The notes below the pieces were generated by a model, which searched no databases, was not told the origin of the DNA, and saw nothing but the letters and a program-made list of their open reading frames with translations. Position numbers and translations under genes: made by a program. A stretch of DNA of 64,000 nucleotides from Escherichia coli (GTDB taxonomy: Bacteria; Pseudomonadota; Gammaproteobacteria; Enterobacterales; Enterobacteriaceae): the NCBI RefSeq assembly GCF_003334305.1, contig NZ_QOWS01000001.1; one strand, given 5' to 3'. Positions 17,928 through 58,398 of this stretch are shown piece after piece. Within the stretch, counting starts at the first letter, position 1; each line of letters starts with the position of its first letter.

Positions 17928-18061
17928 CAACCAAACGACTCGGGGTGCCCTTCTGCGTGAAGGCTGAGAAATACCCGTATCACCTGATCTGGATAATGCC
18001 AGCGTAGGGAAGTCACGGACCACCAGGTCATTGCTTCTTCACGTTATGGCAGGAGCAAACT
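17928..18061 (+). promoter_or_regulatory. TPP (THI-box) riboswitch in the thiM 5' UTR
   Basis: Sequence CGGGGTGCCCTTCTGCGTGAAGGCTGAGAAATACCCGTATCACCTGATCTGGATAATGCCAGCGTAGGGAA matches the thiM aptamer; the downstream segment overlaps GGAGCAAACTATG (SD and start). Confidence 0.9.
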
Positions 18062-18850
18062 ATGCAAGTCGACCTGCTGAGTTCAGCGCAATCTGCGCAC
18101 GCGTTACACCTTTTTCACCAACATTCCCCTCTTGTGCACTGCATGACCAACGATGTGGTGCAAACCTTTACTGCCAATACCTTGCTGGCGCTCGGTGCAT
18201 CGCCAGCGATGGTTATCGAAACCGAAGAGGCCAGTCAGTTTGCGGCTATTGCCAGTGCGTTGCTGATTAACGTTGGCACGCTGACGCAGCTACGCGCACA
18301 GTCGATGTGTGCCGCCGTTGAGCAAGCAAAAAGCTCTCAAACACCCTGGACGCTTGATCCAGTAGCGGTTGGTGCACTCGATTATCGCCGCCGTTTTTGT
18401 CTGGAACTTCTGTCTCATAAGCCAACCGCCATACGTGGTAATGCTTCGGAAATCATGGCATTAGCTGGCATTGCTAATGGTGGACGGGGAGTGGATACCA
18501 CTGACGCCGCAGCTAACGCGATACCCGCTGCACAAACACTGGCACGGGAAACTGGCGCAATCGTCGTGGTCACTGGCGAGATGGATTATGTTACCGATGG
18601 ACATCGTATCATTGGTATTCACGGTGGCGATCCGTTAATGACCAAAGTGGTAGGAACTGGCTGTGCATTATCGGCGGTTGTCGCTGCCTGCTGTGCGTTA
18701 CCAGGCGATATGCTGGAAAATGTCGCATCTGCCTGTCACTGGATGAAACAAGCCGGAGAGCGCGCAGTCGCCAGAAGCGAGGGGCCAGGCAGTTTTGTTC
18801 CACATTTCCTTGATGCGCTCTGGCAATTGACGCAGGAGGTGCAGGCATGA
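18062..18850 (+). CDS. thiM: Hydroxyethylthiazole kinase
   Basis: 262 aa, [34 protein letters not shown]; directly follows the riboswitch. Confidence 0.92.
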
Positions 18851-34385: not shown

Positions 34386-35399
34386 TTACTCTACTGTGGA
34401 CACTGTGTGGACACTCTCGGCCTCAGTACCACCTCTTAGCGGATTAAGAGAAATGGCGTCCTGAAGGTACTCTGGCGCAAAATGAGCGTAAACCATAGTT
34501 TGCTCAATCCGCGTGTGACCTAGTATCCGTTGTAGCGTGATAATACTTCCTCCATTAATCATGAAATGAGTGGCAAAGCTGTGCCTTAGTGCATGTGTGG
34601 CTTGCCCCATTGGCAAATCCGGTTTTATTGCTTTCATTGTTCGTCTGAAGCGAGGGTAATCAGCATCAGGGAATAAAAAACCTCGTTTGTTATCCGCGAT
34701 CATTTTGGCAACAGCCTCTGAGATCGGGACGGTGCGTGGTTTGTTTGTTTTCGTTTTAACAAACGTGACGCGGTTATGGATGATATTTTCTGCTTTCAAA
34801 CGAGCTGCTTCTCCCCAACGTGCTCCTGTACTCAGGCAAAGAATCGCAATCTTTTTATTGTCGCCGTCAAGTGCTGCAAGCAGTAAGGCAATTTCTTCCT
34901 GTGTTAGATAGCCTGTTTCTGGTTTTTCCTCCTTAAGCCTTTTTGTCCCTCTGATAGGGTGCTCACCAAAGAATAACTCCGCTTCAATCAGGGCTGTAAA
35001 CATGCCGCTAATACATGTTAAATCACGATTGATACTCGAAGGTTTAATACCCTGACTTCTTCGGGTGGCGCAGTACTGGCTGATAAGCGATTTCGTAATT
35101 TGAAATGCGCATGGGTCATTCGTTATTTTTGTGAAGATTTCAATTTTTCCAAGATTAGATTTCCCATGCTCTTCGTGTTTACCCTTTAAATCCCACCAGA
35201 TCTGTGTCAGCTCCGACAGACGTCGCTTGTCTGTTGGTTTTGATAGCCATTCTTTATTGTGGTGGTTGTACAACGTGTATTTCTCGAAAGCGACAGCTTC
35301 GCTTTTCTTATCAAACTTCCTACGGATGCGTTTTCCATTACGTCCAGTAGGGCGGATGTCCACTTCATATCGACCATCATCGAGTTTTTTGATTGCCAT
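34386..35399 (-). CDS. int: P2-like prophage integrase (tyrosine recombinase)
   Basis: 337 aa; C-terminal HALRHSFATHF...LGHTRIEQTMVYAHF catalytic box. Confidence 0.92.
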   Translation of the reverse strand: MAIKKLDDGRYEVDIRPTGRNGKRIRRKFDKKSEAVAFEKYTLYNHHNKEWLSKPTDKRRLSELTQIWWDLKGKHEEHGKSNLGKIEIFTKITNDPCAFQITKSLISQYCATRRSQGIKPSSINRDLTCISGMFTALIEAELFFGEHPIRGTKRLKEEKPETGYLTQEEIALLLAALDGDNKKIAILCLSTGARWGEAARLKAENIIHNRVTFVKTKTNKPRTVPISEAVAKMIADNKRGFLFPDADYPRFRRTMKAIKPDLPMGQATHALRHSFATHFMINGGSIITLQRILGHTRIEQTMVYAHFAPEYLQDAISLNPLRGGTEAESVHTVSTVE

Positions 35400-40243: not shown

Positions 40244-40599
40244 TGACAAAGATTCACAAAGTAAAGCTGCACGCAAGATATTTCAACCTTGTGCTGGAGG
40301 AAAAAGAAACGCACAGAATTTAGGGGGATAGCCGTTATCATGTGTATGAAGCACTTGAAATGTATCTGCATCACTTGGGAGTGTGTCAACGGGGAATTTC
40401 CATCTATGTGATTTTTTGAGAGCAATGCAGTGAAGATAAAGATACTTATTATAAATCAATGTGATAGATGGTGCCTCGCAAACGTAAATGATAGTTTTGA
40501 AGCTTCAGGGCTGATGTCGTTCATAAGACTATGTTTACGCTATCATTTATGATAAAAATAATTAATTTTTATCATAAAGATTCAACAGAGGATATGTTG

Positions 40600-42105
40600 A
40601 TGAATCAACTAAAATCAATGAATATCAATAAGTTACTTTTGGATGTTGATAACCCTCGTTTCCCGACGTCAGCAGAAAATCAGCGTGATGCTATTGCCAA
40701 GATGCTTGACTTGCAGTACGACCGCATTTATCGCTTGGCTAAAGATATTGCTTCGAAAGGTTTAGATCCGTCTGAAAACATATTAGTTTATCCTAGTGAA
40801 GAGGAATCTGGCTTTTTCGTCGTTGCTGAAGGTAATCGTCGAGTTACAGCCCTTAAACTTTTACACTCTCCTAGACTTGCACCAACAGAAAAAGCACGGA
40901 AAGCTTTTGAAAAACTTAAGATTACTCAGCTTAAAGATATTAATGTTATAGATAACTGCGTTCTTTTTGACGATGATGAATATGAGCATTGGGTCAATTT
41001 AAAGCATACTGGTCAAAATGCTGGAGTTGGAAGAGTTGAATGGACTGCAACAGAAAAAGCACGACATCTGGCTAGGATGGGTAAGCAGTCATTTGGTAAT
41101 CAAATACTTACATTTATAGAGTTCAATACTGATTTATATAAAGAGATAATTGCTAAAAAAAGACTTTTAAAAATCACAAACATCACGCGTCTTTTTGGTG
41201 ATTTAAAGGTGAGGGATTATTTTAATTTAAAAAGCATTAATGGAGTTCTATACTCATATCAGCCTTATGAACGTTTTTGTGCACAATTAAAAAATATTTT
41301 AGATGTAATGATTGAAGAGGATGATAAAGGTAAGGCTTGTTTTACTGTTAATAGGATTCGTAGCCAAGATGACAGGGTTACATTTATTATTGAACAAAAA
41401 ATAAAACCTTCAGAATCTCTTTTAGATAAGCCGTGGAGTTTATTAGAGCCTAAATCTTTTCTTACAGAGAAAAAACATGATTCTATTGACAAAAATGATG
41501 CATCTGTGAGTGTAAAGAAAGCAGGTCTTTCAGAAGGTGATGCCTTAAAGAATACAGGTGTGGATAAACAGGAAGATGATTATTCTAGACATGTAGGCAC
41601 AGAAGAGAGTAAATCTAAAGTTTCGGGTACGGAACAGAATAAAAACAAGGGAAAAACTCCTCCTAAAGTAGATCGTAATGTGTTGGTGCCATCTTATGTG
41701 AAATTTAATTTTAGAGGGCATAAGAAATGCTCTAGAATATTTAATGAGCTTAAGTCGCATCTGACATTTGATAACACCCCTAATGCTATCTCAATATTGT
41801 TGAGAATATTTATAGATCTCTCTGTAAGCACTTTTGTTGAAGAAAACAAGTTACAATTTAAGGAACCACATAGAACTCCAGGGCTTCATGATAAGGTTAA
41901 AATGTGTGCTAATTTCCTTCGGGAAAATAAAAAGATGACGGGGAGTCAATGTACGGCTGTAATAACTTTCTCGAGCCAAATAACTAAACATGATGGTTCA
42001 TTGCAGCAGTATGTACATAACCCACACTTAATTCCCTCAAAAGAGGCTGTCAACACTGAGTGGGATAACTTTGAGTTGTTATTAAGCCTTATTTGGAGTG
42101 AGTGA
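40600..42105 (+). CDS. ParB/Srx-fold domain protein with disordered Lys/Ser/Glu-rich linker and uncharacterised C-terminal domain (cargo gene 1)
   Basis: ORF 40531-42105 (524 aa); likely start at 40600 (GAGGA seven nt upstream). N-terminus has DVDNPRF and VVAEGNRRVTALKLL, matching ParB box motifs; conspicuously AT-rich against the flanking phage genes. Confidence 0.7.
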   Translation: MNQLKSMNINKLLLDVDNPRFPTSAENQRDAIAKMLDLQYDRIYRLAKDIASKGLDPSENILVYPSEEESGFFVVAEGNRRVTALKLLHSPRLAPTEKARKAFEKLKITQLKDINVIDNCVLFDDDEYEHWVNLKHTGQNAGVGRVEWTATEKARHLARMGKQSFGNQILTFIEFNTDLYKEIIAKKRLLKITNITRLFGDLKVRDYFNLKSINGVLYSYQPYERFCAQLKNILDVMIEEDDKGKACFTVNRIRSQDDRVTFIIEQKIKPSESLLDKPWSLLEPKSFLTEKKHDSIDKNDASVSVKKAGLSEGDALKNTGVDKQEDDYSRHVGTEESKSKVSGTEQNKNKGKTPPKVDRNVLVPSYVKFNFRGHKKCSRIFNELKSHLTFDNTPNAISILLRIFIDLSVSTFVEENKLQFKEPHRTPGLHDKVKMCANFLRENKKMTGSQCTAVITFSSQITKHDGSLQQYVHNPHLIPSKEAVNTEWDNFELLLSLIWSE

Positions 42106-42174
42106 GATTTGTCTACATCTGGACATGGATGTCCAGAAACTGATAAACTACAAAATCAGGAATGAGAGGGATTT

Positions 42175-43059
42175 ATGAAATTTTATACTCCATTAAGATA
42201 CCCCGGCGGGAAAGGTAAGTTATCTTACTTTTTAAAAGATGTTATTGAAAAAAACTCGTTGAATGATGGAGCATATGCAGAACCTTACGCTGGTGGTGCA
42301 GGGGTGGCTTTAGAATTATTATTGGAAGAGTATGTCCGTAAAATCTATATAAATGATGCAGATTTTGCTGTTTATTCTTTTTGGTCATCTGTTGTTAGTG
42401 ATACTGATGAGCTTTGCCGACTTATTAGCCGAGCAAAGATAGATATGGATGAATGGTCTTTTCATCGCTATGTTATTTCGAATCCTTCTGAGTTTACTAA
42501 GCTTGAGGTTGGCTTTGCTGCGTTTTTCTTAAATAGAACAAATCGTTCAGGTATTCTCAAGGCGGGGGTTATAGGCGGGAAATCACAAAATGGAAAATGG
42601 AAAATGGATGTTCGCTTTAACAGGGCGGATTTAATTTCAAGAATTGAGAAGATAGCAAATTATAATCAAAGAATAGTAGTAACTAATCTGGATGCTTTGG
42701 ATTTTCTTGATGTCTTGAATTTTATGGATAATATGGGAAAGGTGGATAAAAATAAAATTCTTTTGTATTTGGATCCTCCTTACTATATTAAAGGGCAAGG
42801 GCTTTACAGGAATTTTTATGAGCATGATGATCATGTATTGGTTATGAAGAAACTCACAGAAATTAATTTCCCAAATTGGCTTGTTTCTTATGATAACGCT
42901 AAGGAAATTAAAGATATTTATAATGGATTTCCGCAAGTTGAGTATTCATTGCAATATACAGCGCATCTCAAAAAATCTGGAGAGGAAGTGATGATTTTTT
43001 CTCCTGAAATAATTATTCCTAATACCCTGAAAGGGGGCTCAATGCCAACTTGCGCCTGA
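42175..43059 (+). CDS. Dam-family (D12 class) N6-adenine DNA methyltransferase (cargo gene 2)
   Basis: 294 aa; motifs collinear with E. coli Dam: YPGGKGK (Dam WAGGK), EPYAGGAGV (Dam EPFVGAGSV), FFLNRTNRSG (Dam LYLNRYGYNG) and DPPYY (residues about 200-204); AT-rich. Confidence 0.85.
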   Translation: MKFYTPLRYPGGKGKLSYFLKDVIEKNSLNDGAYAEPYAGGAGVALELLLEEYVRKIYINDADFAVYSFWSSVVSDTDELCRLISRAKIDMDEWSFHRYVISNPSEFTKLEVGFAAFFLNRTNRSGILKAGVIGGKSQNGKWKMDVRFNRADLISRIEKIANYNQRIVVTNLDALDFLDVLNFMDNMGKVDKNKILLYLDPPYYIKGQGLYRNFYEHDDHVLVMKKLTEINFPNWLVSYDNAKEIKDIYNGFPQVEYSLQYTAHLKKSGEEVMIFSPEIIIPNTLKGGSMPTCA

Positions 43060-52645: not shown

Positions 52646-53431
52646 TTATGAGTGATTTTTATTTGATGCTTTGTATTCTAAAACCTTCTTATTGGCGTAA
52701 AAGAATTTTGTATATGACAGGAATATAACCAGACCTGAAGTGAAATAGACGAGGGATAGTATTAATAATGCTTTTTTGTGACTGTTATTATCTTTAATCT
52801 CCTGGCTTAACCATTCGGAGTCCTCCTCGTTTAGCTGTAAGAGCTTATTGCAGGCGATCTCAGGAAGTGTGTCTTTTATAAATACGTTTTGCAGTTTCTT
52901 GCAATCGGCAAGGCTATAAGTTTTATTAAATTCAACTGCTTTATTTTTGAAGGATAAAAGAACTTTGTCACTATAAACATAGTACATCATGTTTTTATAT
53001 GGTATGCCTATGGCATCCCTTACTATAACGGATTGTTTGTTGTGTATGTAACATGCGAGGAGAATGTAAAAAATACTGGTCAGAATTACAATTATTGTTT
53101 TAATTATGTGTGGTGGTTTTGTTATGTCACCCCAGATGCGAGTAAGGAAAAAATACGATGTTTTTAGTTTTCCATCAATCAGTCCCTGCTGTATCATTCT
53201 CACATTTTCAATGCCTGATACATTGATTCCGTTAATTATTTTAAATAGTTGAATGTCGCGCCACTCGCGGTCAAGTCTTTTTAATTTTTTGTCTGAATAT
53301 CCAAAATTGAAATAATGTGCAATAAGCCTCATAAGGTTACTTTTACCAAAGCTAAAAAATGCTAATACTGCAAAGCTACAAAGGAAAAAAACGATTAGCC
53401 CCCACACATTAGTCACATTATAGCTGACCAT
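52646..53431 (-). CDS. AT-rich predicted membrane protein of unknown function, antisense to the late operons (cargo)
   Basis: 261-aa ORF between S and V; about three hydrophobic helices (IVFFLCSFAVLAFFSF, IIKTIIVILTSIFYILLACYI, ALLILSLVYFTSGLVIFLSY); Lys/Asn/Ile-rich. Confidence 0.65.
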   Translation of the reverse strand: MVSYNVTNVWGLIVFFLCSFAVLAFFSFGKSNLMRLIAHYFNFGYSDKKLKRLDREWRDIQLFKIINGINVSGIENVRMIQQGLIDGKLKTSYFFLTRIWGDITKPPHIIKTIIVILTSIFYILLACYIHNKQSVIVRDAIGIPYKNMMYYVYSDKVLLSFKNKAVEFNKTYSLADCKKLQNVFIKDTLPEIACNKLLQLNEEDSEWLSQEIKDNNSHKKALLILSLVYFTSGLVIFLSYTKFFYANKKVLEYKASNKNHS

Positions 53432-55407: not shown

Positions 55408-56011
55408 TTCGCGCCTGCTGCCGACCGGCTCATCACCGCTTGAAATTGCTGCCGCGAAAGCCTGTGCGGAAATTGAAAAAACGCCGGTCAGTATTCGTGA
55501 GCTGTGGAACCCGGACACCTGCCCGGCAAATCTGCTGCCGTGGCTGGCGTGGGCCTTTTCGGTCGACAGGTGGGATGAAAAGTGGCCGGAAGCGACAAAA
55601 CGCGCCGTTATCCGCGATGCCTATTTCATCCACTGTCATAAGGGTACTGTCGGCGCAATCCGGCGTGTTGTGGAGCCGCTCGGCTATCTGATTGAAGTGA
55701 GGGAGTGGTGGCAGCTCAACGAGGAGCCGGGGACGTTCCGTATCGTTGTTGGCGTGCTTGAGCAGGGTATTACCGAAGAAATGTATCTGGAGCTGGAACG
55801 TCTCGTTGCTGATGCAAAACCGGCGAGCCGCCATCTGACGGGACTGGCTATCAGTTTAAGTACAACCGGCAACATTTTTGCCGGAACGGGATGCTATCAC
55901 GGTGACGCCCTGACGGTTTATCCCTACACCCCGGAGGCCATTATTGTCGGAGGGGATTATTTCCCGGCCTCGGTCATTCATTTAATTGATAACCTGAGAG
56001 TAAACGCATGA
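55400..56011 (+). CDS. I: Baseplate protein I
   Basis: 203-aa ORF overlapping J end and H start. Confidence 0.8.
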   Translation: MSDSRLLPTGSSPLEIAAAKACAEIEKTPVSIRELWNPDTCPANLLPWLAWAFSVDRWDEKWPEATKRAVIRDAYFIHCHKGTVGAIRRVVEPLGYLIEVREWWQLNEEPGTFRIVVGVLEQGITEEMYLELERLVADAKPASRHLTGLAISLSTTGNIFAGTGCYHGDALTVYPYTPEAIIVGGDYFPASVIHLIDNLRVNA

Positions 56012-57687
56012 CAGTGAAATACTACGCCATTCTGACTAATCAGGGCGCAGCACGACTGGCTAACGCGACGATGCTCGGCAGTAAGCTGAATCTGACGCAA
56101 ATGGCCGTTGGTGATGCGAATGGTGTATTACCGACACCAGACCCGGCACAGACAAAACTGATTAACCAGAAACGCATTGCACCGCTGAATCTTCTGAGTG
56201 TTGACCCTAACAATCAGAGCCAGATTATTGCGGAGCAAATTATCCCTGAAAACGAGGGAGGATTCTGGATCCGTGAGATTGGGCTTTATGATGATGAAGG
56301 CGTACTCATTGCGGTGGCGAACTGCCCGGAAACGTACAAACCGCAGTTGCAGGAAGGCAGTGGTCGTACCCAGACTATCCGCATGATTCTGGTTGTCTCG
56401 AATACCGAAGCCATCACGCTGAAAATCGATCCGTCGGTGGTACTGGCGACCCGTAAATATGTGGATGACAAAATCTCAGAACACGAACAGTCACGACGAC
56501 ACCCGGATGCATCGCTGACCGCAAAAGGTTTTACTCAGTTAAGCAGCGCAACCAACAGCACGTCTGAAACACTGGCCGCAACGCCGAGAGCGGTAAAGAT
56601 CGCGTATGACCTTGCTAACGGGAAATATACTGCACAGGACGCGACCACAGCGCGAAAAGGTCTTGTCCAGCTCAGTAGCGCCACCAACAGCGATTCTGAA
56701 ACGCTTGCGGCAACGCCAAAGGCGGTAAAGACAGCATATGACCTTGCTAACGGGAAATATACCGCACAGGACGCGACCACAGCGCGAAAAGGCCTTGTCC
56801 AGCTCAGCAGCGCCACTAACAGCACGTCAGAAACGCAGGCTGCCACACCAAAAGCCGTGAAGGCTGTATATGACCTTGCCAATGGAAAACAACCTGCCGA
56901 CGCCACACTGACCGCACTGGCAGGCCTTGCCACTGCGGCAGACAAACTACCGTATTTTACGGGGAATGATACAGCCAGCCTGACAACCCTGACTAATGTT
57001 GGACGGGATATTCTGGCTAAAACAAGCAAACAGGAGGTTATTCATTATCTTGGTTTGGGAGCTACAAACGGATACGTGGGACGCTTGGTGAATACCCGGG
57101 TTTTCACGTCATCAGGTACGTACACCCCGACACCAGGAACAAAACGGATCAGGGTCACAATAACGGGCGGCGGTGGCGGAGGGGGTGGCTGCCAGGCTAT
57201 ATCCAGTAACGAAACGTTTTTCGGTGCTGGCGGTGGGGCCGGAGGGACAGTAATCACCATACTGACCCCGACACAGAATAGTTATCCTGTCACTATCGGC
57301 GCAGGTGGGGCCGGCGGCGTTGGTGCGACGAACGGCCTCAAGGGCGGTGATAGCTCGTTCGGATCGGTAATAGCCCCTGGTGGTGAAGGCGGCGGAAAAG
57401 TAGGAGTCACAAACACAAACGGCGGTAACGGAGGCGTACCGAATATTGGCGATATCCGCATCACTGGTGGAGATGGAGGCGACGGTCAGTCCGGGAATAT
57501 CAGCGTCAGCGGTGAAGGCGGTGCATCGTACTGGGGAGGCGGTGGACGTGCAGGCGCTGGCGGTGGCGTTAGAGGCAGGGCATTTGGTTCAGGCGGAGGT
57601 GGTGCATACGATGCAGGTTATAGCGGAACCAGTATGACGGGCGGGAAAGGTGCTGATGGGGTTTGTATTATCGAGGAGTTTGCATAA
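56008..57687 (+). CDS. H: Tail fibre protein with internal tandem repeats and Gly-rich C-terminal domain
   Basis: 559 aa; conserved N-terminus MTVKYYAILTNQGAARLANA; three ~44-aa repeats (QLSSATNS.SETLAATP.AVK.AYDLANGKYTAQDATTARKG); C-terminal third dominated by GGxGG runs. Confidence 0.88.
   Translation: MTVKYYAILTNQGAARLANATMLGSKLNLTQMAVGDANGVLPTPDPAQTKLINQKRIAPLNLLSVDPNNQSQIIAEQIIPENEGGFWIREIGLYDDEGVLIAVANCPETYKPQLQEGSGRTQTIRMILVVSNTEAITLKIDPSVVLATRKYVDDKISEHEQSRRHPDASLTAKGFTQLSSATNSTSETLAATPRAVKIAYDLANGKYTAQDATTARKGLVQLSSATNSDSETLAATPKAVKTAYDLANGKYTAQDATTARKGLVQLSSATNSTSETQAATPKAVKAVYDLANGKQPADATLTALAGLATAADKLPYFTGNDTASLTTLTNVGRDILAKTSKQEVIHYLGLGATNGYVGRLVNTRVFTSSGTYTPTPGTKRIRVTITGGGGGGGGCQAISSNETFFGAGGGAGGTVITILTPTQNSYPVTIGAGGAGGVGATNGLKGGDSSFGSVIAPGGEGGGKVGVTNTNGGNGGVPNIGDIRITGGDGGDGQSGNISVSGEGGASYWGGGGRAGAGGGVRGRAFGSGGGGAYDAGYSGTSMTGGKGADGVCIIEEFA
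56509..56904 (+). repeat. Three tandem ~132-bp coding repeats inside H
   Basis: Near-identical units beginning GCGACCACAGCGCGAAAAGG at 56641 and 56773, with a more diverged first copy from about 56509. Confidence 0.8.
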
Positions 57688-58097
57688 TGAATGCGTCATA
57701 TGCAGTTATTGAAAATGGGATGGTTGTGAATGTCATTGTCTGGGATGGCGAGGATGAATTCACTGTGCCGGATAATCAGCAGCTCATTAATATTTCTGAT
57801 ATCAGTGAGCAGCCCGGAATCGGCTGGGTGTATTCAGACGGGGGATTTACTGCGCCACCCACTCCGGAACGTTCTCATGATGAACTGGTAGCTGACGCTG
57901 AACAGAAAAAACAGTCGCTGTTAGACGCAGCAATGGTCAATATCAGCGTGATTCAGTTAAAGCTGCAGGCCGGGCGCAAACTGACGCAAGAGGAAACTAC
58001 CCGACTTAACGTTGTGCTGGATTATATCGACGCTGTGACGGCAACAGATACCAGCACCGCACCGGATGTCATCTGGCCTGAACTGCCGGAGGCGTAG
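57687..58097 (+). CDS. G: Tail fibre assembly chaperone
   Basis: 136 aa from MNASYAVIENG; start overlaps the H stop. Confidence 0.8.
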   Translation: MNASYAVIENGMVVNVIVWDGEDEFTVPDNQQLINISDISEQPGIGWVYSDGGFTAPPTPERSHDELVADAEQKKQSLLDAAMVNISVIQLKLQAGRKLTQEETTRLNVVLDYIDAVTATDTSTAPDVIWPELPEA

Positions 58098-58197
58098 ACC
58101 ATTCAATATCTGACGTACCGGAAGTATCGGACCGCTCCGGTGCGTACAGGTAATCCAGCCACAAATTATATTGCGCCAGTACCTCAGACCTGCCGGG

Positions 58198-58398
58198 CTA
58201 TTGCTTAGTGTTCATGTGTTTATTGGCCTGATTAATCAGTAGCTGTCTTTCTGGTCGTGTGGATCCTGCAAATCCTGAATGGTCGGAAATACCGCAGGCG
58301 GGCTGATTGCCCGCCTTTTTTATCTGTTGTTTCATCCACTGACCAGCCAGGTCAAATAGCGTCTCATGCTCTGCACAACAGAAAATAGTTGCACCCAT
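58198..58398 (-). CDS. Small antisense ORF at the G/FI junction (P2 Z/fun position); coding status uncertain
   Basis: 66-aa ORF in the gap between G and FI; contains the plus-strand terminator hairpin. Confidence 0.3.
   Translation of the reverse strand: MGATIFCCAEHETLFDLAGQWMKQQIKKAGNQPACGISDHSGFAGSTRPERQLLINQANKHMNTKQ
58297..58321 (+). terminator. Rho-independent terminator after the V-G tail operon
   Basis: GGCGGGC-TGATT-GCCCGCC hairpin followed by TTTTTT. Confidence 0.7.

Follow-up and report, generated by a model that had tools for sequence, protein, structure and literature searches.

A P2-type tail fibre of an Escherichia coli prophage with a glycine-rich tip probably acquired by cassette exchange

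The tail fibre gene H of an intact P2-like prophage, which is inserted between yegS and the gat operon of Escherichia coli, raises the question of how a fibre with a P2-type attachment end came to terminate in a long series of glycine runs. The gene lies in a stretch of 64,000 nucleotides that was analysed as a whole and is referred to here as the window. The best explanation, which is probably correct, is a four-module P2-type fibre whose glycine-rich tip arrived together with its cognate chaperone by cassette exchange. The features on which the argument is built are the following.

56008..56457, + strand: baseplate-attachment (tail-collar fibre N-terminal) domain, H residues 1-150 (PF12571).
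56500..56895, + strand: three 44-aa (132-bp) tandem shaft repeats, H residues 165-296 (PF03406, Tandem Repeats Finder).
56896..57048, + strand: conserved linker KQP.DATLTALAGL...YLGL, H residues 297-347, the module-swap junction (identity with P2 H).
57049..57687, + strand: predicted receptor-binding tip with TNF-like and glycine-rich fold (Gly_rich_2), H residues 348-559 and stop codon.
57687..58097, + strand: G, a 136-aa tail fibre assembly protein (chaperone), translationally coupled to H (PF02413).
58069..58281, - strand: relic of a second, inverted tail fibre assembly gene, with approximate ends (APEC37 annotation, identity with Peduovirus magyaro).
58249..58296, + strand: relic of the 3′ end of a P2-type G gene (88% identity with L004 5033-5084, the terminal ~50 nt of P2 G).
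58296..58325, + strand: terminator-like hairpin with T-run ending the V-W-J-I-H-G operon (8-bp stem).

The H reading frame is intact in the ORF map (56008..57687, + strand) and encodes 559 aa. Its residues 1-150 match the whole of the Pfam model PF12571 (E 1.7e-62), which confirms the N-terminal baseplate-attachment region of about 150 residues that a first-pass annotation had proposed. The DNA up to nt 56468 is 95.5% identical to that of Peduovirus magyaro and MET_P1_103_31. The gene before H is P2 I (TIGR01634, E 1e-62), and both the ORF map and RefSeq give the order I-H-G inside a V-W-J-I-H-G operon that is followed by the sheath and tube genes. The APEC37 locus, 99% identical to the window, carries the matching RefSeq gene order. 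A search of NCBIfam gave no model matching H or G. By its PF12571 domain, its place in the I-H-G order and its PF03406 repeats, H is a P2-type tail fibre. The P2-family N-terminal domain would dock the fibre, presumably as a trimer, onto the baseplate.

The shaft that follows consists of three PF03406 units, found by Pfam at residues 169-209, 213-253 and 257-296 with E values of 1e-20 to 1e-19. Tandem Repeats Finder reports a period of 132 with 2.6 copies and 83% matches at 56542-56879, and at lag 132 the bases match in 197 of 252 positions, as compared to 66 +/- 7 in shuffles. The three tandem repeats of about 44 residues and their 132-bp period, as first described, are thereby borne out. The description of their DNA as "near-identical" was overstated, as the units compared in pairs are 73%, 66% and 81% identical and adjacent ones share no exact run longer than 29 bp. 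Nor does the term "divergent" suit this part of the fibre, since P2 H contains two copies of this 44-aa unit with 84-87% DNA identity. PF03406 is in fact a widespread Pfam family which also matches the Mu fibre S (E 1e-7). Judged from these alignments, H appears to depart from P2 H in the tip only, not in the repeats.

A prediction that the number of repeats may vary has been borne out as well, since 2, 3 and 4 units are found in E. coli Br_190_kylling, the window and E. coli A7, respectively. The H gene of A7 is nucleotide-identical to that of the window apart from one exact added 132-bp unit, a perfect copy of unit 2. The A7 sequence is 100% identical to the window over 30000-56500. The 2-unit allele of Br_190_kylling belongs to a gene about 95% identical. 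The difference between three and four units may nevertheless stem from an assembly error in which an exact 132-bp duplicate was collapsed or expanded, because a collapsed repeat yields exactly such a pattern, namely one perfect unit extra with everything else checked (30000-56500 and the rest of H) identical. This reading is possible but somewhat unlikely, as ordinary reads can span a 264-bp perfect tandem. Beyond this one pair, the separate allele of Br_190_kylling and the unit counts of P2 H (two) and of the window (three) indicate that copy number differs among real lineages. Unequal recombination between PF03406 units would change the unit number and thereby set the length of the fibre. 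Alleles longer by 396 bp, such as that of STN0717-20 (H of 691 aa), were also considered as carrying three more repeats (396 = 3 x 132). Translation ruled this out, the insert being a 130-aa domain like Mu S' (8ju3_A, E 6e-27).

The similarity to P2 H continues beyond the repeats into the linker. The window is 78-85% identical to P2 H at the DNA level over 56256-57021, with 83% in the linker itself (56899-57021). BLASTP likeness to P2 H reaches about residue 452, but the real conservation stops at YLGL, near residue 350, and BLASTP found in H no counterpart of the C-terminal receptor-binding region of P2 H. The comparison with P2 H and G that had been suggested thus revealed no full-length identity. 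Two further observations fall on the same joint. The identity with a fibre-plus-Tfa cassette of another prophage (L007) begins at 57049, and the 390-nt extra domain of STN0717-20 is inserted exactly between linker and tip, at 57049-57055. The conserved linker ending in YLGL would therefore be a plausible recombination joint. The proposal that the receptor-binding module was exchanged by recombination is upheld by the end of P2 H similarity at about residue 350, by 93.3% identity with the cassette beyond it and by the gene relics downstream. The sequence comparisons show H to be a mosaic, in which a P2-type attachment end and shaft are joined to a glycine-rich tip with its matching chaperone. 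Its four modules, N-terminal domain, shaft, linker and tip, have differing histories.

The glycine-rich C-terminal domain with GGxGG runs, as originally noted, is matched by PF21722 (Gly_rich_2) at residues 368-556 (E 7e-13). Glycine makes up 34% of residues 368-559 and 4-10% elsewhere in H. The tip holds 10 glycine motifs by pattern, about 10-12 conserved motifs being a trait of the family, and the invariant columns of the family alignment are glycine without exception. Among the 150 representatives listed, the Gly_rich_2 domain is C-terminal in nearly all. Structure prediction of the monomer gives a beta-sandwich with a lattice of extended glycine-rich loops. The GGxGG runs are not low-complexity filler but make up a domain that is modelled with confidence and has a homologue in the tip of a solved fibre. 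The solved tip is that of Pam3 gp24, which a profile of 54 tip sequences matched over the whole domain (E 8e-16). A phmmer search of PDB with full-length H missed it, so that the family profile was required. Likewise, when the phage collection was searched with the tip, tblastn gave almost no matches because the low-complexity filter masks the glycine runs, and relatives of the tip were sought instead by DNA and HMM searches. No literature on PF21722 was found under its accession. The tip would fold as a TNF-like beta-sandwich whose extended loops pack as a glycine-motif lattice, as in Pam3 gp24; its packing within a trimer and a polyglycine-type conformation would have to be extrapolated from a model of the monomer. 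Variability was profiled in one dimension across 117 close homologues, and it falls mostly between the glycine motifs. The conserved motifs may accordingly be pictured as a scaffold, and receptor contact is predicted for the variable residues that lie in between.

An altered receptor specificity, as suggested from the outset, is a reasonable expectation from an exchanged tip. By analogy with P2 and with the Klebsiella homologues of Pam3 gp24, the receptor is most likely an LPS structure. One of these homologues, TFP_Y of SCNJ1-Y, blocks DNA ejection triggered by LPS, and its host-range mutations fall in the glycine-rich domain (PMC12671077). LPS is not assured as the receptor because the glycine-rich gp38 adhesins of T-even phages bind outer-membrane proteins. 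Within the same architecture, the tip may thus bind an outer-membrane protein of porin type, as gp38 of T2/S16-type phages does. The glycine-rich lattices of gp38 with their variable loops bind OmpC, OmpF, FadL, Tsx and similar proteins (PMC12032242, PMC12892980), and the variation between glycine motifs among close homologues resembles the hypervariable segments of gp38. The tip of H does not share the features that define T-even gp38, namely a separate monomeric adhesin with a polyglycine sandwich and a fold near that of S16 gp38. A protein receptor is the less favoured choice, unlikely though far from negligible, and an LPS structure is retained as the preferred one.

The gene that follows H bears on the origin of the tip. 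The ATG of G overlaps the stop codon of H (TAATG), and residues 32-135 of G match PF02413 Caudo_TAP (E 3e-21). A phmmer search of PDB with G alone gave no match, whereas a five-sequence profile of the G family found TfaMu (5yvq_B, E 4e-11). The AF2 model of G shows a beta domain (residues 1-55) and two helices (64-94 and 101-118). The two parts differ in their relatives: the first 60 aa recur only in chaperones encoded after glycine-rich tips, and the C-terminal 76 aa are 78% identical to Tfa of Peduovirus magyaro. The start MNASYAVIENG is common to G and the cognate genes in the Mu-baseplate cassette and in phage Goslar, and the short N-terminus and its motif recur in genes downstream of distant glycine-rich fibres. 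By its relatives and its model, G is a protein of two modules, a variable fibre-specific N-terminus and a conserved helical C-terminus. As the cognate chaperone, it would owe its specificity for this kind of tip to the short N-terminal beta domain, and the helical half conserved among Tfa proteins would, by analogy, drive trimerisation. The same division of labour between fibre and chaperone is known from the Pam3 gp24-gp25 complex (PMC9608196).

Tip and chaperone are found side by side in unrelated settings. The segment 57049-58067, which comprises the tip from H residue 348 and G, is 93.3% identical in DNA to the L007 fibre-plus-Tfa cassette. That cassette belongs to a prophage with a Mu-type baseplate, where a 308-aa fibre follows baseplate genes of Mu gp45-48 type, and its Tfa is 90% identical to G. 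Of the 5,426 complete E. coli genomes, 262 carry the cassette, and plasmids account for 77 of its places. The tip domain also occurs in proteins of 983-1405 aa at 85-90% identity. Isolated phages hardly ever have the tip. Among 50,697 phage records searched at the DNA level, the only carrier of the whole cassette is the jumbo phage Goslar, whose gp090 and Tfa match it at 68% DNA identity. By these comparisons, tip and G move together as one cassette among Mu-baseplate prophages, P1-like plasmids, long fibres and Goslar. In the present prophage, the cassette would have replaced a P2-type tip and G.

The region downstream of G keeps traces of such an event. The APEC37 stretch homologous to 58069..58281 is annotated by RefSeq as a Tfa pseudogene with an internal stop, and the Tfa' of Peduovirus magyaro, a convergent gene, has 80% DNA identity with the inverted relic in the window. 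This phage retains an alternative fibre end and a DNA invertase, and the relatives NC_041848 and OQ383618 keep the invertase and the inverted alternative fibre end plus Tfa. In the ~320 nt between G and the sheath gene of the window, neither an invertase nor a complete inverted fibre end was found, only the Tfa' relic of ~210 nt. No invertase and no alternative fibre end are left, and the locus is therefore fixed in one orientation. The cassette probably came from an invertible fibre segment that would later have lost its second half and its invertase. At 58296..58325, the operon ends in a hairpin with an 8-bp stem, including 7 GC pairs, followed by TTTTTATCTG.

These losses may also be taken to mean that the locus is decaying, so that the fibre or its chaperone would be non-functional and the tip without a present role in adsorption. 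In keeping with decay are the two gene relics downstream of G, the lost invertase and alternative fibre end, the later start (125 aa) that RefSeq gives to the G homologue of APEC37 and the label 'incomplete, missing N-terminus' that it attaches to the G homologue in two strains. However, H and G are intact, coupled and part of a complete set of V-W-J-I-H-G, sheath, tube and tape-measure genes. Furthermore, the MNASYAVIENG start is conserved, the G of A7 is annotated full length in RefSeq, and a short N-terminus is characteristic of the chaperone family that accompanies glycine-rich tips. Decay of the locus is thus very improbable. Even less credible is the view that the glycine-rich domain is a C-terminal intramolecular chaperone that is removed, or an enzymatic module acting on the receptor: some fibres do end in self-cleaving chaperone domains (T5 pb1, K1F endosialidase; PMC9608196) and LPS hydrolysis by the Klebsiella homologue was left open by its authors (PMC12671077), but Pfam found no Peptidase_S74, other chaperone or enzyme family in H, a separate Tfa chaperone gene is present, and the solved Pam3 fibre has this domain as its distal tip (PMC9608196; 7yfw, 7ypx).

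The mosaic fibre with its travelling cassette has several implications. The cassette represents a receptor-binding class common in E. coli prophages and without a characterised coliphage representative. As a tentative and rather doubtful extension, it may rank among the major classes of receptor-binding module in temperate E. coli phages, present in ~5% of complete genomes and nearly missing from isolated coliphages because laboratory hosts lack its receptor, which could for example be an O-antigen or an outer-core structure that wild strains possess; 44-aa units would be gained and lost on short time-scales, and the shaft length adjusted in this way would let the tip reach its receptor through surface layers. 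The natural series of 2, 3 and 4 units offers clean material on fibre length versus adsorption. Exact module boundaries, with the joint at YLGL (nt 57049), and the co-travel of tip and chaperone are needed for fibre-swap engineering, the targets of which are P2-type phages, tailocins and transducing particles. No principle is changed by these results, as fibre mosaicism, cassette exchange and the tip fold were already established.

Among known systems, P2 (NC_001895) is the closest for the proximal part. H shares with P2 H the operon position after I, the PF12571 N-terminus, the 44-aa PF03406 unit and the KQP.DATLTALAGL...YLGL linker, with an overall identity of 51% across H residues 1-452. 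P2 H differs in having two repeat units, an additional shaft segment of ~90 aa and a C-terminal region of ~280 aa without similarity to the window tip. As had been remarked, both window proteins are shorter than those of P2 (H, 559 versus 669 aa; G, 136 versus 175 aa). The window G is distantly homologous to P2 G (26% identity, E 6e-5), in which the N-terminal domain is longer. As regards Mu (fibre S/S' with TfaMu, or gpU; PDB 5YVQ, 8JU3), its TfaMu is homologous to G, whereas the tip of its fibre S is unrelated to the window tip. With the invertible segments of Gin/Cin/Pin type, such as Mu S/S', the window shares the relic of an inverted second Tfa gene.

For the tip, the structural counterpart is gp24 of cyanophage Pam3 (PDB 7YPX, 7YFW; PMC9608196), a minimal fibre of 280-289 aa with an alpha-helical docking stalk. 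Unlike gp24, the window tip forms the end of a longer protein with a P2-type attachment domain and a repeat shaft, and the two sequences share only about 30% identity. When the G model was compared with Pam3 gp25, the structural resemblance was not specific. TFP_Y belongs to the same domain family as the window tip, and gp44 of the Klebsiella Jedunavirus BUCT_49532, a 285-aa fibre, is 63% identical to it over 202 residues. Each of these proteins makes up an entire short fibre (~285 aa) and comes from a lytic myovirus of ~49 kb. Read by eye, the gp44 sequence does not carry T169 and S209 of TFP_Y, and no Tfa gene is annotated downstream of gp44 in BUCT_49532. The gp38 of T2/S16-type phages is a separate monomeric protein that caps the fibre and is absent from the best structural matches of the window tip. 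Lastly, the glycine-rich domains of ALK/LTK belong to eukaryotic receptors, and neither they nor gp38 count as members of the same family as the tip.

The fibre gene H lies in the E. coli chromosome within a P2-like prophage, which is inserted beside yegS and the gat operon and extends from an integrase gene (34386-35399). E. coli A7 (NZ_CP028767.1) shows 100.0% identity to the window over 30000-56500. H is preceded by a homologue of P2 gene I (TIGR01634, E 1e-62) and followed by G, which encodes its assembly protein.

Genes and domains of the fibre locus
56008-57687, + strand: H, intact ORF of 559 aa
H residues 1-150: tail-collar fibre N-terminal domain (Pfam PF12571, E 1.7e-62)
H residues 169-209, 213-253 and 257-296: three "phage tail fibre repeat" units (Pfam PF03406, E ~1e-20 each)
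H residues 368-556: Gly_rich_2 (Pfam PF21722, E 7e-13)
57687-58097, + strand: G, ORF of 136 aa, its ATG overlapping the H stop codon (TAATG)
58296-58325: strong terminator-like hairpin closing the operon

Elsewhere in the prophage, two cargo genes 3′ of the P2 A-type replication gene (40531-43059, + strand) match PD-Lambda-5, an anti-phage system, as its protein A (524 aa, E 6e-168) and its protein B, a Dam-like methyltransferase (294 aa, E 3e-121), and the pair occupies the region where P2-like prophages are known to vary. Between the tail-completion genes and V, the opposite strand carries a 261-aa ORF (52646-53431, - strand) with no match in PADLOC or NCBIfam; in size, strand and position it agrees with the non-essential orf30 of P2. 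In the chromosomal part, a TPP riboswitch (RF00059, 71 bits; 17931-18027, + strand) is found 5′ of an operon starting at 18062.

The first-pass annotation described H as an attachment end, three repeats and a glycine-rich end, and this is borne out by the Pfam domains, by the repeat period of 132 bp given by Tandem Repeats Finder and by a glycine content of 34% in residues 368-559. Both proteins are also, as it stated, shorter than their P2 counterparts (559 versus 669 aa for H, 136 versus 175 aa for G). In the repeat region, 197/252 bases match at a lag of 132, against 66 ± 7 in shuffles. However, calling the DNA repeats near-identical was an overstatement: the three units are pairwise 73, 66 and 81% identical, and neighbouring units share no exact run longer than 29 bp. 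The repeat-number variation that it anticipated does occur in nature, as differences of whole units. The A7 gene is identical to that of the window before (492/492 nt) and after (792/792 nt) the repeats, and its sole difference is one additional, perfect copy of unit 2, which makes four units instead of three and a protein of 603 aa. This difference reflects either a very recent event or assembly collapse or expansion. In Br_190_kylling, a gene ~95% identical carries two units (515 aa), as does P2 H. The repeats are common to P2 and many other fibres, but their number is not invariant.

H is not identical to P2 H over its full length, as its glycine-rich C-terminal domain (from residue 348, hereafter the tip) is not that of P2. 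An AlphaFold2 model of H 338-559, made from an alignment of 54 sequences that share 41-86% identity with the window tip, has a mean pLDDT of 93.2 and a pTM of 0.87, and a Foldseek search with it agrees with a Pam3 gp24-type fold. The profile of the same 54 sequences matches Pam3 gp24 across the whole domain (E 8e-16). In the solved Pam3 gp24-gp25 complex, the glycine-rich fibre domain is a TNF-like beta-sandwich, and the variable loop tips of gp24 are the proposed receptor contacts (PMC9608196). Ten glycine-rich motifs are recognized in the window tip by a simple pattern; the invariant columns of the alignment are all glycine, and variation among 117 close homologues falls mostly between the motifs. 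Because of the model, the profile match and the conservation of the motifs, the GGxGG runs belong, by prediction and homology, to a known receptor-binding domain with a defined fold, in which they serve as the scaffold. Given the confident model and the homology to Pam3 gp24, they are not considered a disordered or collagen-like tail.

G is assigned to Caudo_TAP (PF02413, E 3e-21). A profile combining G with four genes directly 3′ of related or distant glycine-rich fibres matches the solved TfaMu (5yvq_B, E 4e-11), with G 15-134 aligned to TfaMu 57-174. The first ~58 residues of G (M..YAVIENG.V.NVIVWDGE...IGW.Y.DG.FTAPP) are kept among chaperones following glycine-rich tips, and the last 76 are 78% identical to a tail fibre assembly protein (Tfa) of Peduovirus magyaro that partners another tip. 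The predicted model of G comprises a beta domain (1-55) and a pair of long helices (64-94, 101-118), the same layout as Pam3 gp25, with its beta-sandwich at 1-55 and helical part at 64-162 (PMC9608196). Searched by fold, the G model gave unspecific matches, also as regards gp25. G owes its small size to a short fibre-specific N-terminal domain, and judging from the sequences this is a trait of the family, not a truncation. The reading of G as a truncated gene was rejected, given that the short N-terminus is common to chaperones after glycine-rich tips and that the identical A7 gene is annotated by RefSeq at full length (136 aa). Elsewhere RefSeq places the start of the homologue later (APEC37, L001 7713-8090, 125 aa) or calls it a pseudogene "missing N-terminus" (STN0717-20, L002 3660-3986; a further strain locus, L003 3132-3458).

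Pairwise DNA comparisons yielded a mosaic map of the locus, in which the tip and G (together, the cassette) match those of L007, a prophage whose fibre (308 aa) and Tfa (138 aa) are encoded 3′ of Mu gp45/46/47/48-type baseplate genes.

Segments of the mosaic map, with DNA identity
55400-56468: gene I plus the first ~155 residues of H, 95.5% to Peduovirus magyaro (NC_041848) and Salmonella phage MET_P1_103_31
56256-57021: shaft repeats with the linker, 78-85% to P2 H
57049-58067: H from residue 348 and nearly all of G, 93.3% to the L007 cassette
57912-58253: 80% to the 3′ ends of both convergent Tfa genes of Peduovirus magyaro
58249-58296: relic of a P2-type G 3′ end, 88% to P2 G over its final ~50 nt

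The left joint of the cassette falls at ...VIHYLGLG; in P2 H, the motif reads ...VIEYLGL, and there its own unrelated tip starts. Exactly at this linker/tip joint, the 691-aa H allele of STN0717-20 holds an extra 130-aa domain (L002 2548-2938) resembling Mu S' (8ju3_A, E 6e-27), and its fibre putatively bears two distal modules in tandem. The extra-domain allele is also present in six further genomes. On the right, two gene relics, an inverted Tfa fragment and the P2-type G end, occupy 58069-58296 between G and the sheath gene; the homologous stretch of APEC37 is annotated by RefSeq as an opposite-strand Tfa pseudogene. Peduovirus magyaro and MET_P1_103_31 keep the full order of H-Tfa, a convergent Tfa' with alternative end and a DNA invertase, and the ~320 nt between G and the sheath gene of the window contain no invertase. 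The relics are read here as recording a decayed invertible segment and a replaced original G. The cassette would have taken the place of the P2-type tip and G, and an invertible segment, degraded since then, was probably its vehicle.

Records of E. coli, Shigella and Klebsiella contain hundreds of sequences closely related to the tip (identity 83-98%), many of them 308-aa proteins wrongly named "carbohydrate kinase". A full scan across 1.84 billion representative proteins yielded 1,409 with the domain (E <= 1e-10); among the 150 matches listed, nearly all have it at the extreme C-terminus, in proteins of ~215-1405 aa. The DNA of the tip and the G N-terminus (57060-57860, coverage >=80%) is present in 262 of 5,426 complete E. 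coli genomes, and the cassette is joined to this particular H in only 23 genomes at >=80% coverage. Plasmids account for 77 of all cassette places in the complete E. coli genomes. Such plasmid records measure ~91-94 kb (e.g., NZ_JBSTNB010000003.1 and NZ_CP151039.1), and judging by their size they may be P1-like phage-plasmids. Among 50,697 deposited phage genomes, the whole cassette occurs only in the jumbo phage Goslar (68% DNA identity, in a P1 gpS-like fibre), with partial tip matches in Klebsiella Jedunavirus BUCT_49532 and two 48-kb coliphages. "Carbohydrate kinase" is the name given in many public records to the 308-aa glycine-rich fibre that Mu-baseplate prophages carry (5001-5927 of L007-L009; proteins P0046-P0120), a propagated misannotation. 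In L007-L009 an acyltransferase_3 gene lies directly 3′ of the cassette.

The module map, homologies, cassette sharing and copy-number alleles of H and G are direct observations. By homology, the fibre would be a trimer docked via H residues 1-150, with the repeats forming part of the shaft and setting its length and three tips at the distal position; the beta domain of G would bind the sides of the tips, and its helices would nucleate trimerisation. Since P2 uses the LPS core as its receptor and the studied enterobacterial homologues of gp24 also indicate LPS, an LPS structure is favoured for the window tip, with a probability somewhat above even. The Klebsiella homologue TFP_Y prevents LPS from triggering DNA ejection, and its glycine-rich domain is where host-range mutations are located (PMC12671077). 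TFP_Y and MMNM_27, the latter as cited there, are the only studied enterobacterial gp24 homologues, and both point towards LPS. In BUCT_49532, the equivalent fibre (285 aa) shares 63% identity with the window tip. Binding to a protein receptor, as gp38 adhesins do, is a less likely alternative; H is not a gp38 adhesin.

Compared with known systems, H is a genuine member of the P2 family by its N-terminus, repeats and gene context, with a tip other than that of P2. Its tip belongs to the Gly_rich_2 / Pam3 gp24 family, and G is a Tfa. Unlike that of Peduovirus magyaro and MET_P1_103_31, the fibre locus is no longer an invertible segment. Every component and the process of cassette exchange were known already; what is new, to a modest degree, is this particular combination of modules and how common the tip is among E. 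coli prophages.
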